DNA of 64,000 nt, taken from positions 65,034 to 129,033 of the forward strand of contig CALCZR010000058.1 in assembly GCA_937903325.1 (NCBI GenBank), in the 5' to 3' direction. The DNA is from an uncultured Candidatus Saccharibacteria bacterium. GTDB taxonomy: Bacteria > Patescibacteriota > Saccharimonadia > Saccharimonadales > AWTP1-31. The position numbers were made by a program, and so were the translations under genes. This document shows positions 1-60,185 of this stretch, piece after piece (position 1 is the stretch's first letter; every line of letters starts with the position of its first letter). The notes below the pieces were generated by a model. It was not told where the DNA came from. It saw nothing but the letters and a program-made list of their open reading frames with translations, and made no database searches.

Positions 1-1105
<1,105 letters not shown>

Positions 1106-2397: not shown

Positions 2398-2869
2398 GCT
2401 GACCCCCTGGGATTGGGGCTGTCGGAGCTGGTACTGGTTCTGCCGCAAAATGGAGGAGTGAAGCTACCTGGACCCCAGCTAATGCACTTCGTGCGTTTTC
2501 TGTTAGCTCACCCCCGGGATCACGCTCGGTTAACGCCATAGCTCTCGATACGTCAATGCCCAGCGCTTCAGCTATTAAAGCAACCTGCTGGGAGTCATGC
2601 TGCTCGACAAGCGCATCACGAACCTGGCGAATTCCGCCGTTAATTATCAATAGATCATCTGCATTCGGATCGCGCTCAGCGTTACCGAACAAACCCTTGC
2701 CAACCAATGGCTTGTGGCAAACATCGTCTATGGCTCCAACACTCACACCAAATCGCGCGGCTATTCTTGCCCTATCTGCGGCAACAGCCCTCTCAACGGC
2801 GCGGTGCGTAACATCCGAATGCTCGCGAGCGCGTATGAGATCTGGAGAATGACCGACCCGGCTGTTCAT
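2390..2869 (-). CDS. hypothetical protein wedged between atpA and atpG
   Basis: 159-aa ORF that starts 2 nt after the atpA stop, with AAGGA upstream. Its stop overlaps the atpG ATG by 8 nt (ATGGCTAG). It is Ala/Arg/Asp-rich. No family recognised. Confidence 0.5.
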   Translation of the reverse strand: MNSRVGHSPDLIRAREHSDVTHRAVERAVAADRARIAARFGVSVGAIDDVCHKPLVGKGLFGNAERDPNADDLLIINGGIRQVRDALVEQHDSQQVALIAEALGIDVSRAMALTERDPGGELTENARSALAGVQVASLLHFAAEPVPAPTAPIPGGQHG

Positions 2870-2871
2870 TG

Positions 2872-4401: not shown

Positions 4402-4415
4402 ATGTCTAATTCTCC

Positions 4416-4811
4416 TTAGGTAGTCTGACTCTTAAGTCGCTGTAATTGTCGGCGTACGGTCAAATCCAACTGGTGGTCAGCGGTAGTTAATCGCACCCCG
4501 CCAATTACATCGGGGTTAATAGTTTCTTGAATAATTACTTGCTTAGCTCCAGTTTGAGCCATAAAGATCTTCTGGATTTCTGCACTCTGCTCGTTTTGTA
4601 GGCTATACGCAGTCTCGGCTTGTACATATAGTTTGCCGTCTTGCTGTAGCAACTGCCGTTCGATGTCTCGCAAAATTGTACTCAGATCACCCATGCGACT
4701 CTCTTCAATTAAGTAGGCAGCTAGCGAACGGGTAATATCTTGCGTGCTTTTGCCGGCAGCTAGATCTTCTAGCAGAGCACGAGCGATGGTTGAGTTAGAC
4801 TCTTTAGCCAT
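4416..4811 (-). CDS. atpH: ATP synthase subunit delta (OSCP-like), short form
   Basis: Operon position between atpF and atpA. The C-terminal segment [26 protein letters not shown] is delta-like. At 131 aa it is shorter than the usual ~180 aa. Confidence 0.75.
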
Positions 4812-5782: not shown

Positions 5783-6634
5783 CTAGCTTACATCGCCCTC
5801 AAGCCTTCCCACAACCGGGTCGACTTCGTGAGCGGTGTGCTCGTCATCGTGGCCGTGAGCAATCGCAAGACCTAGGTATGTGGCGGCAAGCACCGTGAAT
5901 ACATAGGCCTGGATGCACGCAACCAGGATTTCGAACATCGCTATGGGCAAAATCGTAAACGACTGGAAGTCTTTGCCAATGTAGGCAAATACTGCAATCA
6001 AGATTTCACCGACTACGGTGTTCAAAAACAAACGAAGACTAAGACTAATCATACGGGTAAACTCACCGAATACTTCGAGTAATCCAATAAACGCGTTAAC
6101 CGGGTTCAGGGGCTTATCAGTAAAGTAGTGCTTAAGGTGACCGACAAAACCAGACTCACGAATAGAGAGGTATTGGACGGTAAGGATGGCAAAAACTGCC
6201 ATAGCGATGGTGCCGTTGAGATCAGCGGTAAAGGCACGAAATAGCGGGAAGGTGCCCTCGTGGGTAGTCACGTGAATCCCAGGACCAACCCACGGCATGA
6301 TACCCATAATGTTATTGAAGATAATAAACAAAAAGAACGTCCCAAAGATTGGTGCGTATTGTACTGCTTTCTTGCGTGAGCCAAGCGGCCCCTCAATAAG
6401 ACCAACCACAAATTCTACGAGAATCTCAACAATTTGTGTAAAGCCCTTAACTGCATTAAGCCGTAATTTCTTGCGAGCGGCCAGCCCAAGAGCAAGAAGT
6501 AACACGGCACAGATAGCACCGTAGATAGTGGAGTTCGTAATAGGCAAACCACCAATTTTGTAGATAGCTTCAGGCGCCAGCGCAATATGCGGGCCGTCTT
6601 CAGAAGCTACACGGGTTAGTAGGGCGCCTAACAT
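5783..6634 (-). CDS. atpB: Fo ATP synthase subunit a
   Basis: Polytopic membrane protein containing LSLRLFLN (the conserved Arg). It is the first gene of the operon. Confidence 0.9.
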   Translation of the reverse strand: MLGALLTRVASEDGPHIALAPEAIYKIGGLPITNSTIYGAICAVLLLALGLAARKKLRLNAVKGFTQIVEILVEFVVGLIEGPLGSRKKAVQYAPIFGTFFLFIIFNNIMGIMPWVGPGIHVTTHEGTFPLFRAFTADLNGTIAMAVFAILTVQYLSIRESGFVGHLKHYFTDKPLNPVNAFIGLLEVFGEFTRMISLSLRLFLNTVVGEILIAVFAYIGKDFQSFTILPIAMFEILVACIQAYVFTVLAATYLGLAIAHGHDDEHTAHEVDPVVGRLEGDVS

Positions 6635-6820: not shown

Positions 6821-7051
6821 ATGAGTATTACACTATATACCTCTCCAGCATGCGCTTACTGTCACATGGCACGTGAGTACCTAAAGAGCAAGAAACTCAA
6901 ATTCAAAGAGTACGACATCGCTGACAATCCTAAGGCCCTCGAGTGGGTACGCGACAACGTAGGACAGCTTGCTACACCAGTTCTAGATATTAATGGCACC
7001 GTGATCTTAGGCTTTGACCGACCTAAAATTGACCTCGCTTTACGTGATTAA
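6821..7051 (+). CDS. glutaredoxin-like protein (NrdH/Grx family)
   Basis: MSITLYTSPACAYCH contains a CxxC motif, followed by a thioredoxin-fold tail (TPVL..NG). The ATG at 6821 lies 6 nt after TATACT. Confidence 0.85.
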   Translation: MSITLYTSPACAYCHMAREYLKSKKLKFKEYDIADNPKALEWVRDNVGQLATPVLDINGTVILGFDRPKIDLALRD

Positions 7052-7124
7052 ACACCACATATAGGGTTTGTAGTTTACACAACGACACCATTTATGCTAT
7101 CCTCCTGACAGCGGAGGAACATCT

Positions 7125-7721
7125 ATGGCCGAACCAAGACCTTTGATTGTGGATATCGCCCCACACCTCACCGTGGTACCGACCGGTCCCGCGGAGTTAC
7201 TATTTGTTGATTTTGGTGGATACCGACCGTCTAGTCCTAACATGGCGGTCCTTGAGAATGAAATTTTTGATGCCGACAGTGCGGCCATTATGATGGCCAG
7301 TCTCGGTGCCGCTGGTCTTATCTTAAGCACAGAGACCGTACCGGGACTACGCAGAGAACTTAAGACACCCCAAGCGCGCAACGAAGCACGCAGGACGACG
7401 ATCGAAGCAGCCTTGGCACGGCAACGAGCTGCAAGTGCACTCATCAATAAAACTATCGGTGACTTTACCGAGAATTTCACAATCACCATAGATGCCGCCA
7501 CAGAGAAAGGCATGGCCCGACGGGTACTGGATCATAGCCAATACGATAGGCTATTAGCACGAACCGCCCGTGTGAGTGGCGCCACTCCAATAAAAGTAGT
7601 CACTGATCTCAAAAACGCTGCAAAACGCAAGGTTATTGCCGAAGAAGATCGACTCGAGGCAGAGAGAAGTATGCTCTTACTATACGACCGAGCTCTGCAA
7701 GACAGAGAACGGCACGCGTAG
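7125..7721 (+). CDS. hypothetical protein
   Basis: 198-aa ORF with GGAGGA 8 nt upstream of the ATG. Preferred over the antisense ORF 7097..7513. Confidence 0.5.
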   Translation: MAEPRPLIVDIAPHLTVVPTGPAELLFVDFGGYRPSSPNMAVLENEIFDADSAAIMMASLGAAGLILSTETVPGLRRELKTPQARNEARRTTIEAALARQRAASALINKTIGDFTENFTITIDAATEKGMARRVLDHSQYDRLLARTARVSGATPIKVVTDLKNAAKRKVIAEEDRLEAERSMLLLYDRALQDRERHA

Positions 7722-13659: not shown

Positions 13660-14604
13660 ATGGAGTCATTCAATCTCATCCAGTTCTATCAGAAGTTCGG
13701 TACTGAAAAACAATGCCAGAACTTCTTGTATAAGGCTCGCTGGGTGGATGGTGTAACCTGTCCGAAGTGCGGTGAGATTAATGTTAAGACCTATAAACTA
13801 GCTAGCGGTCGTATAAAGTGTGCCAGTTGCCGTAATACTTTTACCGTTCGTACTCGCAGTGTCATTGAAGACAGCCCAGTACCACTCCAGAAGTGGTTCC
13901 TAGCAATCTACTTGTGTGGCAGCTACAAAAAAGGCATCTCCTCAATTCAGCTCAGTAAGTATATTGGCGTCACGCAGAAGACTGCTTGGTTCATGCTTCA
14001 ACGTATCCGCTACGTCTTTGAAAACGACAGCTTTGAGCTACTGAACGGTGAAGTTGAAATGGATGAGGCCTACATCGGGGGCAAAGACAGCAACAAACAC
14101 GCGCACAAGAAACTAAAGGCTGTCACTGGCAAAGGTGCACAAGGTTTTGGTAGCAAGAACAGTAAAGCTCCAGTTGTTGGCATGGTCGAACGTGGTGGCC
14201 AGTTGCACGCTATCGCTACAAAAGATACTGGCAGCAAAACACTCATGACCTTAGCCCGCATACATATAGACATTAACGCCACGATCTACACAGACGAACA
14301 TATGCCCTATCGAACACTGCCTAAGATCGGCTTTAAGCACGAAAGCGTTAATCACGGCGTTAAAGAATTTGTAAACGGCATGGCCAGTACTAACACGACC
14401 GAGTCGTTTTGGTCACATTTAAAACGAGGCATTAATGGTATTTACCACCACGTCAGCACCAAACATCTGCAACGTTATTGCGATGAATACAGCTACCGTT
14501 GGAATACCCGTGAGCTAACTGACGGTGAACGGTTTGAGGACTGGTTTAATCACCTAAACGGCAAGCGACTAACCTACAGCAGCCTCGTTGCTAAAAAGAA
14601 CTAA
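13660..14604 (+). CDS. IS1595-family (ISXO2-like) DDE transposase
   Basis: N-terminal zinc ribbon CPKCG..CASC, then GISSIQLSKYIGVTQKTAWFMLQRIR, DEAYIGG, IYTDE and NTTESFWSHLKR. The promoter has its TTGACG -35 inside the left repeat, then 17 nt, TAGAAT, 6 nt and the ATG. Confidence 0.9.
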   Translation: MESFNLIQFYQKFGTEKQCQNFLYKARWVDGVTCPKCGEINVKTYKLASGRIKCASCRNTFTVRTRSVIEDSPVPLQKWFLAIYLCGSYKKGISSIQLSKYIGVTQKTAWFMLQRIRYVFENDSFELLNGEVEMDEAYIGGKDSNKHAHKKLKAVTGKGAQGFGSKNSKAPVVGMVERGGQLHAIATKDTGSKTLMTLARIHIDINATIYTDEHMPYRTLPKIGFKHESVNHGVKEFVNGMASTNTTESFWSHLKRGINGIYHHVSTKHLQRYCDEYSYRWNTRELTDGERFEDWFNHLNGKRLTYSSLVAKKN

Positions 14605-14818
14605 ACTTACCTACTGATACCCAACGTATCTTTCTTGAAATGCCCCTACATATTCCTCCTTTCTTTTCTCCCTCTCTTTCTATATAAATATAGAAGAGAA
14701 CAGATTAATTGAGTGATGTAGGGTTATGAGTAGATGTTAGGTGTAAGTTTTGTGAGTTGTATGGTCTGTAGTGTTGAGTGTAGTTTTGGTGAATTAGTGA
14801 GTACCGGTAAGTGATGAT

Positions 14819-15655
14819 ATGGGTGAAGTTAAGTATCGAAGACCATTGAATAAACAGCAGATTAGAACTCTACATTTACTGTATTGGTACCGCTTTTGTA
14901 CGAGCAAACAACTTGCTAGATCTTTTGACAAAGCCAGTCCCAAAGCCATCCAAAACAAACTGCAGATACTGGAAGCCCAAGAACTTATTAGCAAGCGCTA
15001 CGATAAGTCCTACAAGTTAGCTGGACGATCTGCTGAATACTTCATTACCCCAAAAGGTGCTCGAGCACTGGAAAAAGCCAACCCTGATTCAACTAATGCT
15101 TGGGCAACTAAGAGCCTGTATAAGAATAAAACAGTTTCAGACGACTTTCTCAAACACTGTATCGCTGTAACTGAAACGGCTCAAAGACTCCGAGAAATAT
15201 ACGGTGACAACAAAAAACTACACATACTCCCTAAAAGTTATATGGCGCAATGCGACCATTACCCAAGCTGGACACCCGACCTACATCTTGAGATACATGG
15301 CACAGGTGAAACACCAACCAAACACTACTTTCTAGATGTATGGGATGACACCAAACCATTCTTTGTAAGTGTCAGGAAAACCAGAAACTACGCTAACTTC
15401 AAGGATAGTGGTGACTGGCAAGAAGACGAACCGTACCCAGCAATCTCAGCTATCTGTAAAGATGAACGAACCCAGAAGAAGCTAAACCGACAAATGAAAC
15501 GTATCTCCGACGAACAATGGGATGATGAGTGGGTGTTTACAACCACGACCAGGCAACAGCTCGAGCATGCAACAAGAGCAATTGAGAAGATATGGTATGT
15601 CGTCGGAATGGGTGAGCAGAGGTCGCTAATACGAGTACAAGATACCGAAGATTAG
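14819..15655 (+). CDS. replication-relaxation-family-like protein (winged-helix N-terminus)
   Basis: LNKQQIRTLHLLYWYRFCTSKQLARSF..LQILEAQELISKRY matches the replication-relaxation pattern by eye. A paralogous gene occupies the same position in transposon 2. Confidence 0.65.
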   Translation: MGEVKYRRPLNKQQIRTLHLLYWYRFCTSKQLARSFDKASPKAIQNKLQILEAQELISKRYDKSYKLAGRSAEYFITPKGARALEKANPDSTNAWATKSLYKNKTVSDDFLKHCIAVTETAQRLREIYGDNKKLHILPKSYMAQCDHYPSWTPDLHLEIHGTGETPTKHYFLDVWDDTKPFFVSVRKTRNYANFKDSGDWQEDEPYPAISAICKDERTQKKLNRQMKRISDEQWDDEWVFTTTTRQQLEHATRAIEKIWYVVGMGEQRSLIRVQDTED

Positions 15656-19026: not shown

Positions 19027-19101
19027 TCGGGAGTAGCTCAATGGTGGAGCAAGAAGCTGTTAACTTCGAGGTTGCCGGTTCGAGTCCGGCCTCCCGAGCC
19101 A
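19027..19101 (+). tRNA. tRNA-Asn: tRNA-Asn (anticodon GTT), CCA encoded
   Basis: Cloverleaf folded by hand. Acceptor TCGGGAG/CTCCCGA; D arm GCTC-AATGGTG-GAGC; anticodon loop CTGTTAA; T arm GCCGG-TTCGAGT-CCGGC; then G and CCA. Confidence 0.9.
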
Positions 19102-41192: not shown

Positions 41193-42068
41193 ATGAGCTT
41201 GCTAGACTTCCAGAACCAATTCAAGACTGAAGAAGCCTGTCACACATTCCTTGAGGAACAACGCTGGAAGAATGGCCGTTTTTGCCCTCATTGTGGCACG
41301 TATGAGACGTATAAGTTTAAAGACGGCAAACTATTCAAGTGTCAGGACTGTAAAAAACAGTTCACTGTTAAGGTTGGTACCATATTTAGCGATAGTCACG
41401 TCCCGCTGACTAAATGGTTCTACGCGATTTATCTTAATACCTCCCTCAAAAAGGGCATTTCCTCAATCCAACTAAGCAAGTATCTCGGTATTACTCAAAA
41501 ATCAGCCTGGTTTATGCTCCAGCGCATTCGTTACGGTGTTGAAGCTGCTGGGCGCAGCGACCTACTAAATAACATTGTTGAAGTGGATGAAACCTATGTT
41601 GGTGGTAAACAAACGGGTGCACGTCGTGGCCCCGCCGATAAGGCTGTGGTCTTCGGTGCAGTTGAGCGTGGCGGTAAAGCCATGATTAAACATGTACCAA
41701 GTTCAGGCGTGCGTGTACTCATACCTGAGATTCATAAGAACATTAGTCCTGAAGCTACTATATATTCTGATCAATACGGGTCATACAAAAGCCTAAAGCG
41801 TCGTGGCTATACACATACTACCGTTAACCACTCAAAGCTGGAGTTTGCTCGCGGGCTAGTTCACACAAACACAATTGAAGGAGCTTGGGCACACTTCAAG
41901 TTAGGCATCGCAGCCATTTACCTAGGCGTTAGCGTTAAGCATTTACAGCTTTACTGTAGTGAGTTTGAATACCGCTATAACACCAAAGAGATGACTGACT
42001 ACGAACGATTCACGAGTTGGTTTGGTAACTGCCGAGGCCGTGTTACCTACAAAAAACTAATAGCTTAA
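41193..42068 (+). CDS. IS1595-family (ISXO2-like) DDE transposase
   Basis: Zinc ribbon CPHCG..CQDC, then GISSIQLSKYLGITQKSAWFMLQRIR, DETYVGG, IYSDQ and NTIEGAWAHFK. About half the residues match the transposon 1 transposase by eye. Promoter layout: TTGACA, 17 nt, TACACT, 6 nt, ATG. Confidence 0.9.
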   Translation: MSLLDFQNQFKTEEACHTFLEEQRWKNGRFCPHCGTYETYKFKDGKLFKCQDCKKQFTVKVGTIFSDSHVPLTKWFYAIYLNTSLKKGISSIQLSKYLGITQKSAWFMLQRIRYGVEAAGRSDLLNNIVEVDETYVGGKQTGARRGPADKAVVFGAVERGGKAMIKHVPSSGVRVLIPEIHKNISPEATIYSDQYGSYKSLKRRGYTHTTVNHSKLEFARGLVHTNTIEGAWAHFKLGIAAIYLGVSVKHLQLYCSEFEYRYNTKEMTDYERFTSWFGNCRGRVTYKKLIA

Positions 42069-42206
42069 TCCTCCAAAACTGCCATTTTTATTGCTATTGT
42101 TCTTTGCCCCCATGGGCGAGGGCAAGAATGCGCTTGTGTCAAACTGTTAATTTCAGAATATATTGGTACCTACCTTTAAATAATACGGGTAGGAGGGTTT
42201 GGCAAA

Positions 42207-43070
42207 ATGAAACTAACGCAAATTCCAAAAATAACCTATAAACAAAGAACAATACTAGATCTCATATATACCCATAGATTCCTTACTAGAATACAAATAC
42301 AGACATTCCTAAAACATAAAGATAAAAAGACTATTAACCTGTGGCTTAAAGATCTTAGAGACAAAGAATATATAAATTGGATCTACAATAAAGATCACTT
42401 TGCTGAGAAAACTAAACCAGCTATCTACTACTTAGGCATTAATGGTATACGGCATATGCAGAATATGGATTTCCATCCAGACAAAGAAATTCATAAACGC
42501 TACCGGGAACACGAACGCAGCCAGGGCTTTATTGATCGTAGCCTTCTGCTGGCAGAAGTCTGCTTAGAGCTTGATGACGAACGAAACGGCAGCTACTACA
42601 TGACAACACGGTACTACTACGAGACTGAGGCCGATTACCGTAGTGAGATGCGTTACCATTTCTTGAGCGACAACGAGCTAATCCACCCCGATATATGTAT
42701 TGCTCAGTCAGAGGGTGATACAGATGACAGCATTGGCGATCCCGACACCACCGTAGCAAGCTACTTACTGGAGATCTTTGATGCTACATTGCCGAGGTAC
42801 CGTTTACGCAACAAACTGAAGAAGTACGTACAATATCTAGAGGAAGAATTAGACGAATGGGATGAACAGACGGGCAAAGATCCAAGACCGACTATATTAC
42901 TGGTCTGTGCTAGCCTCACAGACCTCATCTACGCTAAACGTAGAACCAGAGGGCTGTTGGCAGAAATCTGGGAGTATGATGACGAAGAAAGACCGCAAGT
43001 GCGGTTTACGACTGTAGGGAATCTCAAAGACAATGGCGTACTTTCCGAGGAGAGTTGGGAGACGGCGTGA
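42207..43070 (+). CDS. replication-relaxation-family-like protein
   Basis: ITYKQRTILDLIYTHRFLTRIQIQTFL..WLKDLRDKEYI (winged-helix pattern). AGGAGG Shine-Dalgarno site upstream. Same position as 14819..15655 in transposon 1. Confidence 0.7.
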   Translation: MKLTQIPKITYKQRTILDLIYTHRFLTRIQIQTFLKHKDKKTINLWLKDLRDKEYINWIYNKDHFAEKTKPAIYYLGINGIRHMQNMDFHPDKEIHKRYREHERSQGFIDRSLLLAEVCLELDDERNGSYYMTTRYYYETEADYRSEMRYHFLSDNELIHPDICIAQSEGDTDDSIGDPDTTVASYLLEIFDATLPRYRLRNKLKKYVQYLEEELDEWDEQTGKDPRPTILLVCASLTDLIYAKRRTRGLLAEIWEYDDEERPQVRFTTVGNLKDNGVLSEESWETA

Positions 43071-43114: not shown

Positions 43115-44446
43115 CTAGAACCTTTTGATACTCCCGTGGTTATTTCTTCTCAGTACAGTAATACTCAGACGATATCGTAGTAAGGGTAAGGTGACTATTT
43201 TGATGTGGTGGCCAAAGGTATAAGGAATAGTCGAGTCTTCCTCAGTAAGTGGTTTCTTATGACGTCGGTAGTCTATATAGATATATACCGTTAAAGCCAC
43301 TAACAAGCCAATGAAGAGTAGACTTGGAAGAAGAACGCCGCCAGTAACTGCTAATGTTGGCTGTTTTGTATCGGGGCTGGTAGGACCCGTTCCTGGGTTT
43401 GGTGTTGGCGTCGGGCTGGGTTCTGGCTCTGGTTCGGGATCTGGGATGAGGCGAGATACACCAATCTTATTCACGCCTGGAGCGGATTCTACAAACCAAA
43501 TACTGCCGTCGGTGCCTGCGGCAATACTATTGGGATATGATGCTGGCGTTGGAATATCATACTCAGTGACCGTACCAGAGGTAGTGATCATAGCTACCTT
43601 GTTATTAAATAGTTCGGTTACCCAAAGATTGCCGTCTGAACCTACCGTAATGTTTCTGTAATAACCAAATGTTTCACCCGTCAATCCTGGGACTGCAGTG
43701 AAGTTTCCATCAACGGTAATCTTTCCAACTTGATAGATGCCTGTACCTGCTACACTGACCCATAGATTACCATCTGGGCCTTGGGTAATGCCAGATGGAT
43801 ACCCGCTTCCACTCGGCAGGCTGTACAGTGTGACGTTTCCATCAACGGTGATCTTTCCAACTTCCTGCGTTCCAAATTTGGTAAACCACAGATTTCCATC
43901 CGGACCGGTTGTTATGGTACCTAGATCAAACGTACCGGTATTAGCAACGGGATACTCGGTAACCACTCCGGCAGTAGTCATTTTACTTATCTTCCCTTCC
44001 TCTGACTGGGTAAACCACAGATTTCCATCCGGACCGGTTGTTATGCTATTTAAGTATGCATTAAGGTTGCCGACGGGATATTCAGTAACAACTCCTGAAG
44101 TAGTGATCTTACCTATTTTATCTATATTCCTTTCTACAAACCACAAATTACTATCCGGGCCAACGGTTATCTCGTTTAACCCGGAACTTGGGGTTGTGAC
44201 TGGATACTTCGTTATGCTTCCGCTAGGCGTAATCACCCCGATCTCGTTAGAACCTACATCGGTAAACCACATATTATTATCGGGGCCACGAACAATTGAC
44301 CCAAGGCCTACGTTGTCGCCACTGACAGGATATTCTTGAATTTCACGTCCTGCGGCGTAGACGGCAGGGAGCAACAATGATGCTGAAAGAATCATGCAAA
44401 ACGCCAGAAGCGATAAGCTGACAATCCGATGTTTCATTGTAATCAT
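43115..44446 (-). CDS. secreted seven-repeat beta-propeller protein (Vgb/streptogramin-lyase-like repeats) with LAVTG-type anchor
   Basis: Signal peptide, then seven G[PST]D[GSN][NS][LMI]W[FV] repeats and a Pro-rich linker (PEPEPEPSPTPTP). The end is LAVTG, a TM helix and RRHKK. I chose the ATG at 44446; the track's TTG is at 44482. Confidence 0.8.
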   Translation of the reverse strand: MITMKHRIVSLSLLAFCMILSASLLLPAVYAAGREIQEYPVSGDNVGLGSIVRGPDNNMWFTDVGSNEIGVITPSGSITKYPVTTPSSGLNEITVGPDSNLWFVERNIDKIGKITTSGVVTEYPVGNLNAYLNSITTGPDGNLWFTQSEEGKISKMTTAGVVTEYPVANTGTFDLGTITTGPDGNLWFTKFGTQEVGKITVDGNVTLYSLPSGSGYPSGITQGPDGNLWVSVAGTGIYQVGKITVDGNFTAVPGLTGETFGYYRNITVGSDGNLWVTELFNNKVAMITTSGTVTEYDIPTPASYPNSIAAGTDGSIWFVESAPGVNKIGVSRLIPDPEPEPEPSPTPTPNPGTGPTSPDTKQPTLAVTGGVLLPSLLFIGLLVALTVYIYIDYRRHKKPLTEEDSTIPYTFGHHIKIVTLPLLRYRLSITVLRRNNHGSIKRF

Positions 44447-44566
44447 ATCCCTTATGGTATTTGATGGGTAGAGACTCGTCAATGAAGTAGCATACTAGAG
44501 CATCAGACTTGATGCAACATACAAATATGCTTATACTTAATGCTAAAGATGTGAGGTGAAATAAAT

Positions 44567-53817: not shown

Positions 53818-54858
53818 CTAAGCATTAACTGGTATTGCAACCGTAAAGGTCGCACCCTTGGCCTTAGCACTCTGCACGGATATGGAGCCACCATGACGCG
53901 TAACTATATCTTTAGCCAAGGCCAACCCTAACCCATGGCCACTCGACTTAAGAATTGTTGCTTGGGCACCTCGATAGAAACGTTCGAAGATCTTTTCCTG
54001 CTCAACTAGCGAGATACCGGGCCCTTTATCACTTACCGTCAGTAGTAAGTGATCGGTTACTCTCTTCAGCCCAACAGAAATGTCCGGTTTGGCACCACCA
54101 TATGTCACGGCGTTATCTACTAAGATGCCGAGTACTTGGGTATACAAGACAGGGTCAACATTTGCTGTCAGCTTATCTTCCACCGAAACGGCAATATCCT
54201 GTCCATGCCGTTTGGAGAGCTTGATTGTCTCATCTAGAACAAGCCTACTGACAGTAACTTTCTTGAGCTTAAGTGGAGCTTCTGCACGGGTCAGGCCGAG
54301 TAGCTGGTCACTTAACTGTCGGAGTCGTTCTACTTCCTCTAGGTTGCTCTTAAGGGCTTCTTTGGCTTCACCACTAGAAAGTTTTTTGTTACGCAGTGCA
54401 ACTTCAATTTCGGTCTGCATTACAGCCAGCGGAGTACGGAGTTCGTGACTGGCGTTGGCGGTGAACTTGGCCTGGGCTTCGTGAGCATCTTCTATGGGTT
54501 GCAGGGTATGACGGGCGAACCAGTAGCCGGCAAAGCCACCGATTAAGGTAATGGTGCTATCTATAATGACGAAGCTGATGAAAAGCTCGCGGCGATCTTC
54601 AGCCAGTTGTTTCTCACGCTGCTGCTCGATCTGTGGAATGAACTGACCCGACTGGAACGGATCGGGTAGGCGACGCACGATATCTGTTTGCAGTTCTGCA
54701 CCACGGCGCAGCCGTGCAGAAGCAACATTGTAGAGGGGGATGCTAAAGACAAAGCAGACAAGAACCAGGACAGCAACGTACCACGCAGTAAGCTTTACAA
54801 CCGCTGATTTAAACACGACTGGTCCTGAGACGGTAGCCAAAACCGCGGATCGTTTCAA
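53818..54858 (-). CDS. sensor histidine kinase
   Basis: Two TM segments, a HisKA H-box (ASHELRTPL) and HATPase N/G boxes (DNAVTYG, GHGLGLA). The track's TTG start overlaps the regulator gene by 50 nt; a GTG at 54816 is a plausible real start. Confidence 0.9.
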   Translation of the reverse strand: MKRSAVLATVSGPVVFKSAVVKLTAWYVAVLVLVCFVFSIPLYNVASARLRRGAELQTDIVRRLPDPFQSGQFIPQIEQQREKQLAEDRRELFISFVIIDSTITLIGGFAGYWFARHTLQPIEDAHEAQAKFTANASHELRTPLAVMQTEIEVALRNKKLSSGEAKEALKSNLEEVERLRQLSDQLLGLTRAEAPLKLKKVTVSRLVLDETIKLSKRHGQDIAVSVEDKLTANVDPVLYTQVLGILVDNAVTYGGAKPDISVGLKRVTDHLLLTVSDKGPGISLVEQEKIFERFYRGAQATILKSSGHGLGLALAKDIVTRHGGSISVQSAKAKGATFTVAIPVNA

Positions 54859-55489
54859 TCAATGAATCGCTTGAGGTTCCATCGATCTTCTTACGCAGAC
54901 TCCGGATAAACACCTCAACAGTATTCGGCAATACGTCTGAATCAAAATCCCAAACGTGTTCCAATATTTGGTCCTTACTAGATATCTGGTCAGTATGGTG
55001 GGCAAGGTACTCGAGTAGGGCATACTCTTTCTTGCTGAGCTTCACTGGCTTACCAGCCACCTGGACCTGTTTCAGTACCGTGTCGATACGTAAGCTACCG
55101 TGAGCGATAACTGGACCAACTGTTTGGCTAGGGCGGCGCTGCAGTGCCCGTAGGCGAGCCAGCAGTTCACTGTACTCAAAGGGCTTTACCAGGTAATCAT
55201 CGGCTCCGGCATCTAGACCCGTCACACGGTCAGTGGTTTCACCCCGGGCGGTCAGCATAAGGGTAGGGGTAGTATTTCCTTGCTTACGAAGCTCGCGGCA
55301 GATATCTAGCCCGTCTTTGTTATCTGGTAGCATACGGTCCAGGACAATGACGTCGTAGTTCTCAGTTTCAGCATAGGCCAAACCTTCGTCAGCAGTCTCC
55401 AGGTGATCTACGGCGTAGCCATCTTGTTCGAGTCCTGCCTTAATGGCGCGGCCTAGTTTCGTTTCGTCTTCTACAAGTAGTATTTTCAC
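54809..55489 (-). CDS. OmpR-family response regulator
   Basis: Receiver domain (ILLVEDE, VIVLDRMLP) plus a winged-helix output domain (IETIRGFGYRL). Confidence 0.95.
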   Translation of the reverse strand: MKILLVEDETKLGRAIKAGLEQDGYAVDHLETADEGLAYAETENYDVIVLDRMLPDNKDGLDICRELRKQGNTTPTLMLTARGETTDRVTGLDAGADDYLVKPFEYSELLARLRALQRRPSQTVGPVIAHGSLRIDTVLKQVQVAGKPVKLSKKEYALLEYLAHHTDQISSKDQILEHVWDFDSDVLPNTVEVFIRSLRKKIDGTSSDSLIETIRGFGYRLRTSRV

Positions 55490-55570
55490 TCTTGTATTGT
55501 ACTGCTTGTTGGCTGAAAAATTCCTGAGCTCAATAACGCTTCACCCGCAGAAGCAAGCAGAGCCTCAAAC

Positions 55571-55598
55571 GTGTGGTTCGAGTCCCTGCTGGCCCTCC
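55571..55598 (+). other. tRNA 3'-end-like fragment (T arm, acceptor strand, CCA) with no matching 5' half
   Basis: Reads TGTGG-TTCGAGT-CCCTG-CTGGCCC-T-CCA. I could not fold the upstream 50 nt into the acceptor, D or anticodon arms. Confidence 0.35.
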
Positions 55599-55640
55599 AA
55601 TCCCGGTTATGTTTAAACTCCTCAAGCGAGGAGTTTTTCT
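55589..55640 (+). repeat. cassette-boundary element copy A (core and right arm only)
   Basis: TGGCCCTCCAATCCCGGTTATGTTTAAACTCCTC-AAGC-GAGGAGTTTTTCTT. The left arm is absent. Confidence 0.8.
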
Positions 55641-55679
55641 TATGCTTGCACTTCTAAGATTTAATGACACAATAGCCAT

Positions 55680-56120
55680 ATGGCAAATCCAAGTATTGCA
55701 ATGATTGGTAGCTTCCACAGAGCACTTGAAACTATGCAAACAGCAATTGATACGTTCAATAAACATGCTATCCAGGTAGTTAACCCTCTTAGTACCGTGC
55801 CATTTGAACCGAGTGATGAGTTTGTGCGCTTTGAAACTGATGAACCTGGATTGTCGGATGCCGAAATTCAGGTCCAGGCACTTCAAAGGATCCTAGGTGC
55901 TTCGGCAGTTTACGTCGTATGTCCAGAAGGCTATGTTGGCAAGACTACCTCTTATGAATGGGGTTTTATTGAAGAACGCCAAAGCCCTGCATACTTTAGT
56001 GAAGAGCCAGAAGTTTGGTTTATGAAACGACATGCCCAGGACCGTATTGTAACCCCGCAAGAACTTGCAGTAATGGTCTGCGATGGATCAATATCACCTA
56101 TCCACAAGTTTGAAGGCTAG
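55680..56120 (+). CDS. cassette 1: hypothetical protein, possibly nucleoside 2-deoxyribosyltransferase-like
   Basis: 146 aa. IAMIGSF...VVNP...VGKTTSYEWGF gives a weak by-eye resemblance. TTG start at 55680; an ATG at 55701 is the alternative. Confidence 0.5.
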   Translation: MANPSIAMIGSFHRALETMQTAIDTFNKHAIQVVNPLSTVPFEPSDEFVRFETDEPGLSDAEIQVQALQRILGASAVYVVCPEGYVGKTTSYEWGFIEERQSPAYFSEEPEVWFMKRHAQDRIVTPQELAVMVCDGSISPIHKFEG

Positions 56121-56190
56121 TTGCGATTAGCTCCACAATGGCCCTCCAATCCCGGTTATGTTTAAACTCCTCGTCTTGAGGAGTTTTTGT
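56118..56190 (+). repeat. cassette-boundary element copy B (full)
   Basis: TAGTTGCGAT-TAGCTC-CACAATGGCC-CTCCAATCCCGGTTATGTTTAAACTCCTC-GTCT-TGAGGAGTTTTTG. It includes the stop codon of cassette 1. Confidence 0.85.
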
Positions 56191-56206
56191 TTGGTATACT
56201 GCCTTT

Positions 56207-56554
56207 ATGAATCAGGCAGGCGTACCCTTATATCAATACATTTTTAATCTACTCGATTTTGGCGATGAGTTGCTAAAGCAACTGGCCGAGGCTGATGAAT
56301 ATAACCGTAATAACTACATACTAATCTTAATATACATTGAAGATATATTGGATAAAGGTGGCCGCGCGATAGTGTCTAAGAGTGCGCGAGAGCATCTGGG
56401 TACTTATGAAGAAGGTGAAAAGATGATGATAGAAGCAACAAAAAGATTGGATTTGCTACGGGGCGAACTAAAAAGATTAGTTGCTAGTTATGATCTCGAT
56501 GAGACCATTAAGTTTAGGAGTGCTGCCATCTTCCAGACTTGGCAAAGGCGCTAG
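56207..56554 (+). CDS. cassette 2: hypothetical helical protein
   Basis: 115 aa. An extended -10 (TGGTATACT) lies 6 nt before the ATG, and there is no Shine-Dalgarno site. Confidence 0.55.
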   Translation: MNQAGVPLYQYIFNLLDFGDELLKQLAEADEYNRNNYILILIYIEDILDKGGRAIVSKSAREHLGTYEEGEKMMIEATKRLDLLRGELKRLVASYDLDETIKFRSAAIFQTWQRR

Positions 56555-56582
56555 TAGCTAGCTGTAGCTAACGTTGATAATG

Positions 56583-56657
56583 TAGTTCCAATAGAGTCTA
56601 CGATGGCCCTCCAATCCAGTTATGTTTAAAGTCCTCAGAAACGGGGAGTTTTTCTTA
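56583..56657 (+). repeat. cassette-boundary element copy C (full)
   Basis: TAGTTCCAAT-AGAGTC-TACGATGGCC-CTCCAATCCAGTTATGTTTAAAGTCCTC-AGAAAC-GGGGAGTTTTTCTTATGCTTGCA. Confidence 0.85.
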
Positions 56658-56694
56658 TGCTTGCATTGTGACAGGGGTATTGTATATTCATTGG

Positions 56695-57657
56695 ATGGCC
56701 TCAGTAGAAGCTCCTGTACGGATTGCCACCCAAGGTAATCAATATTCATATCATGCCCATGCTGCACGGATGGCTGTTGGTGCAGCTATCGAGGCAGTCG
56801 ATTTTAGCAAGTTCGATGACGTAGTAGCGGCAAGTCGACGAAAAGATCCCGGACTTGGCGTAATAGCGATTAACACTGCCGCCGGGGCGGTAGAGGCTTC
56901 TGCGAAGGCTATGTTTGGCAAGCGAACTTCAGCTTTACCTTGGATTGTAGCAAGGGAAGATGTACCAATCCAGCTTGCACTTATTAGTTCACATGAACAA
57001 ACAATAGCAGAGCTACAACGCGGCGGTGTCAGGTGTGTCGCACAGGCAGCAGCTGCAAGGCAAAGTTACGACCTGCTTAAAGAGCAGTTTCCGCGTATGC
57101 GTATCCGAGATAATGGTCCCGAGTCCACTCGTTGCATTCGTACTGTCGTTGAGCGTGGCGATCGTAACTTTCTTACCATTGGCCCTGCTCATGCAGCCGA
57201 GCCAATGGGTGGCTTTATCGTCGAAGGACAAGAACGGGTTAGCCCGGAGGGTAATGTGACAAGTTTTTACGTGCTCCAGAGGGATCCAAGGGAACAAATA
57301 CTACCGGCTGATGCAGATAAATCAGAGAACCTAACCGTACTTGCCATAGCATACCCCGAGGGAGAAGGTGAACTGGCTAAGTGTTTAGAAGTTGCCGAGA
57401 CCATAGGACTTGAAGCAGTGCGATACATGCCCTATAACCCTAGAGATTCAACGAGGCATAATCCTAATCTCAAGCGTGATGGGGGGATTCTGGAGGTGCG
57501 TGGAGGTTATTTTGACGAACATATTACCGAGTTTTGTGCGCAAGTTAACCAGCTTCAGGCGATTGACGGCGCGGATGGTCCTTTCAACGGCAAGCGCCTT
57601 GGGCAATATCAATGGTATCCTGGTGATGTTATTGACCTTCAAGCCCTTGCGACATAA
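56695..57657 (+). CDS. cassette 3: divergent prephenate-dehydratase-like protein (PDT plus ACT-like)
   Basis: VRIATQGNQYSYHAHAA...GVIAINTAAGAVEAS...NVTSFYVL...LAIAYPEGEGELAKCLEV resembles PheA by eye. The ATG at 56695 lies 6 nt after TATATT. Confidence 0.5.
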   Translation: MASVEAPVRIATQGNQYSYHAHAARMAVGAAIEAVDFSKFDDVVAASRRKDPGLGVIAINTAAGAVEASAKAMFGKRTSALPWIVAREDVPIQLALISSHEQTIAELQRGGVRCVAQAAAARQSYDLLKEQFPRMRIRDNGPESTRCIRTVVERGDRNFLTIGPAHAAEPMGGFIVEGQERVSPEGNVTSFYVLQRDPREQILPADADKSENLTVLAIAYPEGEGELAKCLEVAETIGLEAVRYMPYNPRDSTRHNPNLKRDGGILEVRGGYFDEHITEFCAQVNQLQAIDGADGPFNGKRLGQYQWYPGDVIDLQALAT

Positions 57658-57661
57658 AAAT

Positions 57662-57730
57662 TAGTTGCAATAAATTCCACGATGGCCTCCAATCCCAGTT
57701 ATATTCAAAAGCTTCTTCGGAAGTCTTTTC
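57662..57730 (+). repeat. cassette-boundary element copy D (full, diverged hairpin)
   Basis: TAGTTGCAAT-AAATTC-CACGATGGCC-TCCAATCCCAGTTATATTCAAAAGCTTC-TTCG-GAAGTCTTTTC. Confidence 0.8.
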
Positions 57731-57748
57731 ATTAGCTATACTTAGTGC

Positions 57749-58573
57749 ATGTCAGATCGTAATCCAAGAATATTCATTTTGTCTGGATATCGCATGACTT
57801 CTCAAATAGTTTGCGAAGCTGTAACTACTGCGCTACCAGCAGATATCGGGTTATACAGAATTCCGTATTCGCAGTGGTTTAGCTGGGTAGCATATAGGAT
57901 TAAGCGTTTTGGTGCGATGACAATGATCGGGCATATCGGACTGTCACTATACCTAAGTTTTCGGACAGTGCTACTTCGCTTTAATAGACACGCTTGGAGT
58001 AAAACAAGTCATTACACACTTCCTGACCGAGCTGTGAGTCTGAAATCCGAACGAGCACTCCTGGACAAGTTTAAGAGTGCAGATGCTGTGCTGCTGATGG
58101 AACCGTTCCGCTTACCGAGATCAGCCTACTCTAATAAATCGACAACATACTTAGAAGTTGTTTGGGGCGGAACGCCAGACTATATGGGGGATAGCGCTGG
58201 CTGGTGGCAGAAAGTAAATGAGGATGGAACGAGTACGAGCGTGAGTATAATTCAAAGGGCTGGTGAAGCGTCGGATCTAACGTTACTGGCAGCTTGGGAG
58301 GTCCCGCTTGAGCCCAACTATACCATTGGTAGGGTACGTCTTGAACAGGCAAAGGTGCTCATGAAGCAGCTTCCAATATTCCTAAAACAATATACGGTGA
58401 ATAAACCAATGCAGAACAAGTCGGTAGTAAGACGACAAAGTGGTTATAGTTACGTCTCGCCTACACTGGGAGAATACCTTAGATACAATCGGGCAAAAGT
58501 TGTGCCAGAGTCAGTGATTAATCGACGCAGAAGTCGTGTTGACTATAAAGTGAGGGTACATGAAGTTAAATAG
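57749..58573 (+). CDS. cassette 4, gene a: hypothetical protein
   Basis: 274 aa. TATACT lies 6 nt before the ATG. There is a faint formyltransferase-like pattern (RIFILSG..TPDYMG), which I do not trust. Confidence 0.55.
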   Translation: MSDRNPRIFILSGYRMTSQIVCEAVTTALPADIGLYRIPYSQWFSWVAYRIKRFGAMTMIGHIGLSLYLSFRTVLLRFNRHAWSKTSHYTLPDRAVSLKSERALLDKFKSADAVLLMEPFRLPRSAYSNKSTTYLEVVWGGTPDYMGDSAGWWQKVNEDGTSTSVSIIQRAGEASDLTLLAAWEVPLEPNYTIGRVRLEQAKVLMKQLPIFLKQYTVNKPMQNKSVVRRQSGYSYVSPTLGEYLRYNRAKVVPESVINRRRSRVDYKVRVHEVK

Positions 58574-59213
58574 CCGCTATCAGGTTGCACTATTCGCTGT
58601 TGCTGTGTTTATAGTTTTATTTTTGCACGATAGTAATCTCTATCCTCAGTTATCAAATGCACATCGCTTTGTTTTAAGCTCGCTACGGTTCACTCTACTG
58701 GCTGGCCCAGTATTGCTTTCCGTTATGCTTAAGCACACAAAACTGTCTAGCGTTAGAGCTGTCATTTCGGTCGCATTAGCATTGTTCATCCCATATACGT
58801 TGTACAGTGTTACTGAAATCAGGCATATCACAGAGTTGTGTCCCGTACACTCTGTAACATACTTTACCGATAGCTGCAGTCTTTCCAGTTGGAAACTCTT
58901 GCCGCCAATCGTCTATGCCATGATTGGCATAGCAGTATATGGTGTGTGTTTACAACAGCTGAATGTTCGGAGAATGAGGTGGTGGCTGGGGCTGTTTGTA
59001 CTGTATATCGCTCTTGCTTCACAGTTTGCACTACAAAGCAGATTGAACATTTGGAATATTGCCACCCAGCCGGCTGATGTACTAAATGAGCTAATCAAGG
59101 CTGCTACAGCGAAAGAGTTTTGGCTGAACAGCGGGGCTTACTTTCTATTCTTTATGGCTATAACGGCTGTAATTACTCATTCAGTTAATAACATGGCCTT
59201 TAAACAGAAGTGA
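58560..59213 (+). CDS. cassette 4, gene b: polytopic membrane protein
   Basis: 217 aa with about 6 TM helices. Overlaps the upstream gene by 14 nt. Confidence 0.55.
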   Translation: MKLNSRYQVALFAVAVFIVLFLHDSNLYPQLSNAHRFVLSSLRFTLLAGPVLLSVMLKHTKLSSVRAVISVALALFIPYTLYSVTEIRHITELCPVHSVTYFTDSCSLSSWKLLPPIVYAMIGIAVYGVCLQQLNVRRMRWWLGLFVLYIALASQFALQSRLNIWNIATQPADVLNELIKAATAKEFWLNSGAYFLFFMAITAVITHSVNNMAFKQK

Positions 59214-59219
59214 AGAGTT

Positions 59220-59252
59220 TAGTTGCGATAACATCTACGATGGCCGCTCCAA
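59220..59252 (+). repeat. cassette-boundary element copy E (left arm and core only)
   Basis: TAGTTGCGAT-AACATC-TACGATGGCC-GCTCCAA, after which the sequence diverges (AACTAAC...). No right arm or hairpin. Confidence 0.8.
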
Positions 59253-59258
59253 AACTAA

Positions 59259-60185
59259 CTAAAACCACTTGTTCCGCTTGAAGAAGGCAGCAGCAAATCC
59301 AATAAAGCCACCGGTTATGCTAAGGATAATCCAAAAGGCATTAGGGTTGTGTGCTGCTGGCAGGGCAATATTCATGCTATAGATACCGGTAATCAGGGTA
59401 AAGATACCCATAAGTATCGTGATGCTGGTCATGAGCTTGAAGACCTTGTTTAGGCTATTGGCCATAATAGTCGCGTAGGCTTCACGAATGTTACGCAGCG
59501 TAGTCAAACGTGACTGCGCAAGCAGCGTTAGCTCCTGATTCCCCAACGAGAGGTCTTCGATTAGATCTTTGTCTTCTTCATAGAGACGCATAAAGCGTCC
59601 GTTGAGCAATGAATTAAGCACCGCTGCCATTGGCTCAAGTACAAGTAAGAAATCGTTAAGATCTTCTTCGATGTCGATAAAACCAATGAAGTCCCTGTTG
59701 GTGATCTGGTCTTTATCCAGGTGAGACCGCGTTTGCAGAATTCGGCGGCTTGCCGTGTTGATACGCCGCTTGTAGCCTCCGTTAATTGCCTGCAGGATCT
59801 CGAGGATCAGCTGAGCACGCTTGCTGGTAATAATACCGAACGGGCCCTTGGTGATTTGCTCCAGGTGTGTAAAGGTTTGTTCACAGATCGTGATAGTAAC
59901 ACCTTTGGTATAGACAATAAGTAGTGGGGCAGTGGTTATCTTTTCGGCTTCAGGCAGGCAGAAACGGGTAAATATATATACTTGTTCACCATCCCGTTCG
60001 ATACGGGGCGACTCGTTAGGGTCAATGCCGTCCTTAAGCAGGTCGAGGTCTAGCTTGTGTTCAACACTGAGGGCGGTAAGGTCGTCTTCTGTCGGAGACT
60101 CTAAGTGAATCCAAGCACCATCTGTTACTTGGGTAAGCTCTGCCAGCTCCGGGGACTTTGTCGAGCTATGGAATATTCTTGTCAT
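59259..60185 (-). CDS. corA: CorA-family divalent cation transporter (YSMN variant of the GMN motif)
   Basis: Two C-terminal TM helices around GIYSMNI, with a cytoplasmic CorA-like N-terminal domain. Confidence 0.8.
   Translation of the reverse strand: MTRIFHSSTKSPELAELTQVTDGAWIHLESPTEDDLTALSVEHKLDLDLLKDGIDPNESPRIERDGEQVYIFTRFCLPEAEKITTAPLLIVYTKGVTITICEQTFTHLEQITKGPFGIITSKRAQLILEILQAINGGYKRRINTASRRILQTRSHLDKDQITNRDFIGFIDIEEDLNDFLLVLEPMAAVLNSLLNGRFMRLYEEDKDLIEDLSLGNQELTLLAQSRLTTLRNIREAYATIMANSLNKVFKLMTSITILMGIFTLITGIYSMNIALPAAHNPNAFWIILSITGGFIGFAAAFFKRNKWF

Follow-up and report, generated by a model that had tools for sequence, protein, structure and literature searches.

Integrons, a group that takes in chromosomal arrays and the integrase-less attC clusters known as CALINs, hold long arrays of co-oriented, mostly single-gene cassettes of a few hundred bp to about 1.5 kb, in which a conserved recombination site ends each cassette and a distinct site, attI, heads the array beside the integrase gene intI. 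The tycheposons of Prochlorococcus are reportedly tRNA-targeting elements with cargo-only satellites that stand in tandem in genomic islands, and the 3' end of tRNA-Lys(CTT) in Streptococcus agalactiae is occupied by cis-mobilizable elements (CIMEs), kilobase-scale remnants of integrative and conjugative elements (ICEs) that are mobilized in cis by the integrase of a neighboring ICE. The Xer-exploiting elements (IMEX) and the pdif modules of Acinetobacter plasmids are small units with short recombination sites at their ends, and they depend upon a recombinase encoded elsewhere. This article describes an array of gene cassettes in an uncultured Candidatus Saccharibacteria bacterium (assembly GCA_937903325.1, contig CALCZR010000058.1, positions 65,034 to 129,033 of the forward strand; these 64,000 nucleotides are referred to as the window), and in particular the short piece of a tRNA gene that stands at the head of the array.

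Members of the Saccharibacteria are extremely small, depend on a host, and have reduced genomes in which few mobile elements have been recognized. The array in the window lies between the gene for a response regulator and corA, which encodes a magnesium transporter. Its first repeat incorporates an orphan copy of the end of a tRNA-Lys gene, and this copy is probably the chromosome-type left arm and core of an attachment site, which would have arrived with inserted DNA at a corA-regulator spacer that was not a tRNA locus. In its operation the arrangement is comparable to integron arrays and to tycheposon-type stacks at a tRNA, yet it lacks what defines both, having neither an adjacent integrase gene nor attC architecture.

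The tRNA-Lys 3' end and its parent gene

The 25 nt at 55575-55599 of the window reproduce the 3' terminus (about positions 52-76) of the Saccharibacteria tRNA-Lys(CUU) gene without the rest of that gene. They form the greater part of a plus-strand 28-mer, TGTGG-TTCGAGT-CCCTG-CTGGCCC-T-CCA (55572-55599, preceded by CAAACG and followed by ATCCCGG), which an earlier interpretation drawn from the letters alone (the sequence-only reading) had recognized as resembling a tRNA 3' end but had placed one base too far to the left, at 55571-55598. The copy comprises the last two T-stem bases, the T-loop, the 3' strand of the T-stem, the acceptor strand CTGGCCC, the discriminator T, and CCA. Of the T-arm parse proposed at that time, the T-loop, acceptor strand, discriminator U, and encoded CCA stand, but the paired T-stem does not: its pairs would be poor (T.G, G.T, TxC, G-C, and G-C), its first three bases (55572-55574) are not tRNA-derived, and identity to real tRNA-Lys begins at 55575. 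The last 10 nt of the copy belong to the first core of the array (copy A, 55590-55600, TGGCCCTCCAA), and its CCA is directly followed by a terminator.

The parent was identified by comparison with 37 intact tRNA-Lys genes in related loci, all of which end in the core TGGCCCTCCA and have cassettes directly downstream; the earlier equation of the shared core TGGCC.TCCA with an acceptor and CCA end is supported. Against these tRNA ends, the window 25-mer has no mismatch in one case (locus L022, a tRNA-Lys(CTT)), one mismatch in 16, two in 11, three in seven, and five in two; against the tRNA-Asn of the window itself it has eight. This identity makes tRNA-Lys(CUU) the parent gene. In L006 and L009, the array opens with a core that belongs to the 3' end of a complete tRNA-Lys(CTT) gene (GGGCCAGTAGCTCAG...GAGGGTTCGAATCCCTCCTGGCCCTCCA), an arrangement also present in 35 further cases, and ARAGORN called 38 tRNA-Lys(ctt) and five tRNA-Lys(ttt) genes across the related loci.

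A chance resemblance carried by the ubiquitous T-loop motif GGTTCGAGTCC can be dismissed almost entirely. The motif does recur in the window, with two exact occurrences (one in tRNA-Asn) and a one-mismatch copy at 55425-55435 inside the regulator gene, but the match to tRNA-Lys also covers the 14 nt beyond it (CTGCTGGCCCTCCA), and the fragment takes the position that an intact tRNA-Lys holds in 37 homologous arrays. The 25-mer identity and this shared position refute coincidence.

The fragment is not part of a tRNA or tmRNA gene. ARAGORN, in both tRNA and tmRNA modes, called nothing at 55480-55610, and Rfam matched no tRNA or tmRNA there at gathering score, nor at E<=10 across 55300-59500, in agreement with the earlier observation that a tRNA body is missing; such a gene is rejected on these grounds. 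The only ARAGORN tRNA in the window is tRNA-Asn (19027-19101), and tmRNA mode found none in the window or in any locus examined. A full-length decayed tRNA pseudogene is likewise rejected, since the 70 nt upstream of the fragment, in semi-global alignment with the 5' 52 nt of tRNA-Lys, score below shuffles and random genomic 70-mers; the matches GAGCTCA and AAGCAG are due to chance. The D-arm-like sequence GAGCTCAAT pointed out previously is also coincidental, as it spans the boundary (~55528/55529) at which homology to the corA-regulator spacer of relatives stops.

Cassette arrays in the window and across the Saccharibacteria

Five repeat copies, A to E, start at 55590, 56139, 56604, 57683, and 59241 and have in common the core TGGCC(C)TCCAA (Table 1). 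Copy A combines the tRNA-type left arm with a cassette-type right arm and resembles copies B-D on the right side only (ATCCCGGTTATGTTTAAA, hairpin, and T-run), its core and right arm being identical to those of copy B across 34 nt (55590-55623). Copies B-D have cassette-type arms on both sides. In copy E, a left arm of the cassette type is joined to a right flank of chromosomal sequence, which leads into the stop codon of corA. The left arm common to copies B-E reads TAGTTGCGATAnnnTCYACGA. Direct core repeats therefore bound the inserted DNA, with hybrid arms at its ends, and the five copies display the attL / attP-like / attR (BOP' / POP' / POB') pattern of a site-specific insertion of several units. 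The arm pattern supports the suggestion, already made from the sequence, that the tRNA fragment is the attachment-site arm of a cassette array.

Related arrays were collected by a metagenome scan that used the core and right arm as query (nine loci) and by a scan of one genome per species that used the left arm and core (87 stretches), for a total of 96 loci. By our estimate, about 0.4 of the 87 genome stretches would be expected by chance, and almost all come from Saccharibacteria, Saccharimonadales, or Patescibacteria assemblies. Two array contigs that carry a Saccharibacteria-type tRNA-Lys are titled Nevskiaceae (L039, DATLCF010000001.1) and Polynucleobacter (L038), one of the two being 562 kb long; these Proteobacteria labels probably reflect a binning or labeling error rather than transfer. 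Viral contigs contained no match to the site pattern, and a phage origin is rejected on that basis.

The arrays normally begin at an intact tRNA-Lys gene, and their cassettes are separated by a conserved site of ~31 nt, AGTTGCGATAGCGTCTACGA followed by TGGCCCTCCAA. Across 206 distinct sites, the consensus of the cassette-type left arm is A-N4-AGTTGCgATAGC-T--ACrr, followed by TGGCCCTCCAA, with the strongest conservation (1.5-1.8 bits) at GTTG, ATA, and AC; as a search pattern the site takes the form GTTGYRATA-N4-6-ACNRTGGCCCTCCAA. The right side is looser, often consisting of N5-7 TTATG(C/T)TTAAA or AGCATAAGCAYTATGAAAGAC, then a hairpin and T-run. Conservation of the left arm has a 3-nt period with weak positions at -14, -8, -5, and -2 (an example is window 56118-56149), and at -14 the counts of G/A/T are 103/66/33, with C only 4; the minus strand would read ATC, ATT, or ATA. 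The periodicity looks like a coding footprint in the minus frame W-R-A-I-V-D-A-I-A-T, yet no present open reading frame (ORF) spans the sites.

Neighboring cores lie a median of 741 bp apart (range 152-4673, n=184), and 8 kb can hold as many as ten of them; 199 of the ORFs within arrays lie on the strand of the tRNA vs 67 on the opposite strand. On the 5' side of the tRNA at array heads, the genes are housekeeping genes (folD, murI, murD, and one for a small response regulator). Pfam families among the cargo include APH, MFS, EamA, HAD, NUDIX, GNAT, methyltransferases, and RibD_C, and representatives judged from sequence alone also include one PIN-like and one antitoxin-like protein. Each cassette appears to include a terminator and, in many cases, a TGnTATAcT-like -10 box.

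What is duplicated, or shared between genomes, is the segment from one core to the next. Identical cassettes occupy two positions with differing neighbors in L021 and L071, and in L080 a cassette recurs at 98.7% identity beside another neighbor. L078 and L089 have a full-length cassette in common at 88% identity, and L039 and L040 one at 79% identity with differing neighbors. A pair homologous to the overlapping ORFs of window cassette 4 (60-64% identical) is found downstream of the tRNA-Lys array in L080. In that array, a match to the cyclic-di-GMP-II riboswitch that falls just below gathering score (4604-4689; 53.3 vs 53.5 bits, E = 3.7e-9) sits between a homologue of part of the cassette 2 ORF and the cassette 4 homologues; the window array has none.

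Outside the strain of the window, the core completes an intact tRNA-Lys in about 40 occurrences, follows a cassette-type left arm in about 200, and in about 20 is attached to no more than a tRNA fragment that reads ...CAAGTCCCNCC and then TGGCCCTCCA, as in the window. About 18 tRNA-type arms without a tRNA are distributed over 12 loci besides the window. They head arrays in L008, L011, and L014, with no tRNA-Lys upstream in the available sequence; the array of L011 starts 31 nt after the PBP1 gene, and L008 and L014 have one array context in common. In L029, L071, and L080, they close mini-cassettes within arrays headed by tRNA-Lys. Sources for portable tRNA ends do exist. L023 has two identical complete tRNA-Lys(CTT) genes 459 nt apart (oriented 3840-4385), the duplication including ~10 nt upstream of the tRNA, and in L015 (oriented 195-1716) a tRNA-Lys(TTT) with the same 3' core lies inside the array, 1.5 kb past a cassette-type site. 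From these arrangements it follows that both tRNA-Lys isoacceptors can head or join arrays.

The mini-cassettes are non-coding, 150-290 nt long, and located between two cores (Table 1; further cases occur in L020, L021, L029, and L038). A long hairpin, of which the core's CCAAAT forms part (CCAAATAAAATG...TTTATTTGG), comes first; it is followed by a GC-rich structured stretch that has motifs such as GGACTTGAAC and GCCAGnnGGC, and a tRNA-type arm closes the mini-cassette. The L080 mini-cassette resembles a tRNA-Lys derivative with a T-loop insertion. No Rfam family matched the mini-cassettes, and a conserved RNA structure is rejected, given that RNAalifold on eight sequences returned only six weak pairs. 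The mini-cassettes could represent either a novel small RNA or the decayed remains of cassettes in which a tRNA was formerly present. Homology between them and the spacer upstream of the window fragment is rejected (local alignments at z < 1.8; the common 9-mer CGCAGAAGC is not significant), and the part of that spacer at 55542-55574 had no significant similarity to the tRNA-Lys body, to mini-cassettes, or to any locus.

Table 1. Positions of the array, its sites and flanks in the window, of mini-cassettes in related loci, and of the corresponding locus in relatives
Feature	Position or locus	Strand	Remarks
OmpR-family response regulator, left chromosomal flank	54809..55489	-	Pfam Response_reg + Trans_reg_C; homologues 57-96% identical
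Regulator-upstream spacer ending ...GGCTGAAAAATTCCTGAG	55490..55528	.	Homologous to the empty corA-regulator spacer of L104, L105, L111-113, and L115, and to L114
Putative outer left junction, CTCAA then TAACGCTT	55529..55541	+	Putative degenerate core, then cassette-type right arm
Spacer between putative outer junction and tRNA fragment	55542..55574	+	Homologous but diverged in L114
tRNA-Lys(CUU) 3' fragment GGTTCGAGTCCCTGCTGGCCCTCCA	55575..55599	+	25/25 to L022 tRNA-Lys(CTT), 24/25 to 16 others
Copy A right arm ATCCCGGTTATGTTTAAA	55600..55641	+	Terminator-like hairpin 55615-55636 and T-run
Cassette 1 ORF, 146 aa	55680..56120	+	No Pfam family
Site B: cassette-type left arm TAGTTGCGATTAGCTCCACAA, core TGGCCCTCCAA	56118..56149	+	Terminator-like hairpin 56164-56186
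Cassette 2 ORF, 115 aa	56207..56554	+	No Pfam family
Site C: left arm TAGTTCCAATAGAGTCTACGA, core TGGCCCTCCAA	56583..56614	+	Terminator-like hairpin 56632-56647
Cassette 3 ORF, 329 aa	56668..57657	+	Prephenate dehydratase domain
Site D: left arm TAGTTGCAATAAATTCCACGA, core minus one C (TGGCCTCCAA)	57662..57692	+	Different hairpin (GCTTCTTCGGAAGTC) follows
Cassette 4, overlapping ORFs	57749..59213	+	274 aa (57749-58573); 217 aa, DUF1361 (58560-59213)
Site E, array right end: left arm TAGTTGCGATAACATCTACGA, core plus one G (TGGCCGCTCCAA)	59220..59252	+	Chromosomal right flank: AACTAA, corA stop
CorA magnesium transporter, right chromosomal flank	59259..60185	-	44-62 nt from response regulator in six relatives' loci
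Mini-cassettes	L080:573-751, 1074-1252; L071 oriented 3206-3421, 5952-6159, 7018-7225; L013:1652-1846
Corresponding locus	L104, L105		Regulator 83-85% identical; corA-regulator spacer 44-52 nt
Corresponding locus	L111-113		Regulator 73% identical; corA-regulator spacer 51 nt
Corresponding locus	L115		Regulator 69% identical; corA-regulator spacer 61 nt
Corresponding locus	L102/103, L106-110		Regulator 76-84% identical; ~440-aa HATPase_c gene between corA and regulator
Corresponding locus	L117/118		Regulator 64% identical; HATPase_c gene between exoD and regulator; no corA called
Corresponding locus	L119		Regulator 61% identical; different context: 167-aa gene upstream, no corA within 6 kb

The corresponding locus in relatives

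With the response regulator as the anchor for finding orthologous loci, no tRNA-Lys and no core within one mismatch were found in the loci of eleven relatives whose regulator is 61-85% identical. The site is unoccupied in six loci (L104, L105, L111-L113, and L115), where 44-62 nt separate the stop of corA from the start of the regulator, and, being unoccupied and free of a tRNA, it is taken to be a secondary site. The window is homologous to these spacers from the start of the regulator as far as ...GGCTGAAAAATTCCTGAG (~55528) and no further, so that ~3.7 kb (~55529-59255), the tRNA fragment included, is extra DNA in the lineage of the window. In other relatives (L102, L103, L106-L110, L117, and L118), the regulator start is adjoined by a HATPase_c gene of ~435-452 aa, without cores and in some cases split into 360- and 90-aa ORFs. 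The intergenic spot beside the regulator start seems to be a recurrent insertion point.

A near relative, L114, has a regulator that is 96% identical to that of the window as protein and ~85% as DNA, and at the same position it carries a tRNA-type arm and core (...GGTTCGGATCCCGGG, then TGGCCCTCCAT; the head in full reads ...CAAACATGTGGTTCGGATCCCGGG, TGGCCCTCCAT, and TCCCGATTCAGTTTAAACTCCTC...). This head is followed by a different 56-aa cassette, one cassette-type site (AAGTTGCGATAAGCTCCACGA, then TGGCCCTCCAA), three unrelated small genes, and corA. From the absence of a tRNA in the eleven relatives and the same head with other cassettes in L114, it follows that the fragment would be a portable attachment half-site that was brought with the array. 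The sequence-only reading had allowed either for a host tRNA gene decayed in place or for a tRNA mimic carried by the element; the first is not supported, given the eleven tRNA-free loci and the lack of any trace of a tRNA body upstream, and the second comes closer, in that the fragment is kept at the array head in the 96% relative.

Decay in place, the main interpretation of the sequence-only reading, supposes that a full tRNA-Lys(CUU) gene and its array once stood at the corA-regulator locus and that the 5' 51 nt of the gene were deleted. This is improbable, although the distant relative L026 keeps it alive: there, a kinase-regulator pair (36% and 50% identical) lies ~850 nt from an intact, array-heading tRNA-Lys(CTT) on the same side of the regulator, with a 167-aa gene between, and the sequence upstream of the regulator has the motifs GTATTGTAC and GGCTGAAAAA in common with the window. 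Against it, several independent, complete, and scarless losses would be required among the relatives vs one gain in the lineage of the window and L114, which makes gain the more parsimonious account; no leftover similarity to the tRNA body exists upstream of 55575, and fragment-headed arrays occur in unrelated contexts, such as right after the PBP1 gene in L011.

Another possibility, which we regard as very unlikely, is that the fragment acts as RNA rather than as an arm for DNA recombination, being transcribed as a tRNA-like 3' mimic for recognition by RNase P, RNase Z, the CCA-adding enzyme, or a reverse transcriptase. In favor of this, the fragment retains its T-loop, acceptor strand, discriminator, and CCA, and the mini-cassettes elsewhere end in similar fragments and look structured, with a 5' GGGCTAG in L080 that could pair with CTGGCCC. 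The window, however, has neither a 5' acceptor strand nor a paired T-stem, the fold of 55500-55645 is no better than shuffles (z = -1.7), no Rfam family was found at the fragment, and the similarity between the sequence upstream and the mini-cassettes is not significant. In L114, moreover, the core is unchanged while bases of the T-loop and T-stem have drifted, which favors a DNA site over an RNA fold.

At the homology break the window reads CCTGAG, CTCAA, and TAACGCTT in succession; CAATAACGCTT (55531-55541) matches the core and right-arm junctions of L009, L089, and L096 at 11/11 positions, and AATAACGCTT occurs once in the 64 kb. The right junction of the array reads GATGGCCG, CTCCAA, AACTAA, and CTA. 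Together, the two junctions suggest an exchange within CTCCAA at a pseudo-site, which is weakened by the 1-nt indel that each carries. The fragment had been described as the left boundary of the array; it does head the array but is probably not its outermost part, because homology to the empty sites breaks ~45 nt further left, at ~55529.

Mechanism and comparison with known systems

The arrangement of arms suggests a mechanism in which the primary site of the lineage would be the 3' end of the intact tRNA-Lys gene, and single-gene cassettes, each ending in its ~31-nt site, would be inserted and removed by recombination within the common core, with the crossover probably in or near CTCCAA. The tRNA-type arm would serve as an attB/attI-like half-site and the cassette-type arm as an attP/attC-like half-site. 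At the corA-response regulator spacer, a secondary and non-tRNA place, the tRNA-end fragment would have come in with the inserted DNA and stayed as a landing pad while cassettes turned over, and its 25 nt may be a functional minimal half-site. The exchange is presumably catalyzed by a dedicated recombinase that is encoded elsewhere and not nearby.

Several observations weigh against this account in addition to the arrangement in L026. Pfam found no integrase or resolvase among 20 window ORFs, which included all those of 250-460 aa upstream of the array, and no recombinase among the large ORFs of L007, L010, and L011 or among the families matched by at least two of 285 representative ORFs from the 96 loci. 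A regular expression for tyrosine-recombinase box II had no match. With no Phage_integrase, Resolvase, or Recombinase domain in the tested window and locus ORFs, a linked recombinase is rejected. The empty sites of the relatives contain no visible core-like pre-insertion target, which leaves the arrival of the array in the corA-regulator spacer unexplained, and the putative outer junction motif CAATAACGCTT has not been conserved in L114. Cores D and E also depart from the common core, each by a 1-nt indel. Excised or circular intermediates were not observed; L005, from another sample (Logan SRR6231180), joins window 54729-55638 to 56139-56383 and so lacks exactly cassette 1, but it is only a hint of excision, since the join sits in the 34-nt repeat of copies A and B, which is longer than k=31, and may be an assembly path.

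The main mechanistic rival is homologous recombination after transformation, in which the repeats would be homology patches only and cassettes would be acquired, lost, and rearranged by RecA with no dedicated recombinase. Saccharibacteria are reported to be naturally competent. We consider this rival unlikely, though less so than the other alternatives. In none of the 96 arrays examined was a linked recombinase gene found, and the 34-nt identity of the A and B repeats would suit such exchange. Homology alone, however, does not require that the left arm and core be conserved over class-level diversity; the chromosome- and cassette-type left arms have only the ~11-nt core in common, a length that fits crossover by a recombinase but is insufficient for exchange by homology to be efficient, and the array was placed at a spacer without visible homology.

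If a dedicated recombinase does act on these sites, a Xer-type enzyme is conceivable, as the right arm resembles a XerD arm. A Xer/dif site spans 28 bp and consists of an 11-bp XerC arm, a 6-bp center, and an 11-bp XerD arm, with dyad symmetry in its inner part. Many right arms contain TTATG(T/C)TTAAA, similar to the Escherichia coli dif XerD arm, TTATGTTAAAT, and, as with the IMEX and pdif modules, the units are small, the sites short, and the recombinase encoded elsewhere. The would-be XerC arm (TGGCCCTCCAA), in contrast, is not XerC-like, the spacing to TTATG is 5-7 nt, many sites are without the motif, and the sites are direct rather than alternating as in pdif modules. Of a Xer/dif reading only the XerD-like half fits, and the array has no terminus-like GC-skew switch.

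The likeness to integrons is closest in overall design, in that the arrays are long and co-oriented, consist mostly of single-gene cassettes of similar size, have a conserved site at the end of each cassette and a distinct site at the head, and vary in cassette content between close relatives. The cargo is similar as well, being rich in small proteins of no known family together with PIN-like, antitoxin-like, GNAT, NUDIX, HAD, and APH proteins. Unlike integrons, these arrays are headed by the tRNA-Lys 3' end or its 25-nt copy rather than by attI beside intI, no integrase gene adjoins any of the 96 loci, and the site is conserved in sequence, without the R''/L''-L'/R' inverted repeats or GTTRRRY box of attC. 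When the consensus of the 206 sites was read by eye on both strands for the attC motif RYYYAAC...GTTRRRY, it contained only a partial GYTTAAAC, with no GTTRRRY partner and no complementary pair, and attC-like architecture is rejected on this reading.

With tycheposons, as they are reported, the arrays have in common that cargo modules accrue in tandem beside a tRNA gene, that partial tRNA repeats separate the modules, and that the modules carry no integrase of their own. The arrays differ in that the modules are much smaller and typically hold one gene, the host belongs to the candidate phyla radiation (CPR), the repeat has only ~11 nt in common with the tRNA plus a conserved 20-nt arm of its own, and no tyrosine recombinase or replication families occur among the 285 ORF representatives from arrays and surroundings. 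The CIMEs of S. agalactiae use the 3' end of the same isoacceptor as their attachment site and are likewise integrase-less, att-bounded, and stacked in tandem; the present arrays differ in that they can contain as many as 10 sites in 8 kb, lack an ICE, and have a separate conserved site. A full-text literature search found no description of these arrays, which, given its incomplete coverage, is weak evidence of novelty.

It may be, and we rate the proposal as about equally likely to hold or to fail, that Saccharibacteria carry an apparently undescribed integron-like platform in which the tRNA-Lys 3' end takes the part of attI, the ~31-nt site that of attC, the recombinase is encoded elsewhere, and a copy of ~20-25 nt of the tRNA end suffices for a new array to arise and persist at a locus without a tRNA. 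If so, a platform anchored at tRNA-Lys would explain the location and turnover of part of the gene variation between strains, with a cargo of APH-type kinases, acetyltransferases, NUDIX and HAD enzymes, probable toxin-antitoxin genes, and many proteins of no known family. The orphan fragment marks how little of the tRNA is retained when tRNA function is gone; it would point to the minimal target half-site and to a target that can move to new loci. Should the recombinase be identified, a tool for site-specific integration in organisms that resist engineering could be built from the 25-nt target together with the 31-nt cassette site.

The window also contains, at 13660-15655 and 41193-43070, two copies of a unit composed of an IS1595-family transposase (DDE_Tnp_IS1595, zinc ribbon) followed by a Replic_Relax protein, and a Replic_Relax-like protein, its family read from the sequence, lies near arrays in three loci (e.g., L025). 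Large beta-propeller proteins of the Vgb_lyase family are encoded in the window at 43115-44482 and beside the array at L010:9123-10532.

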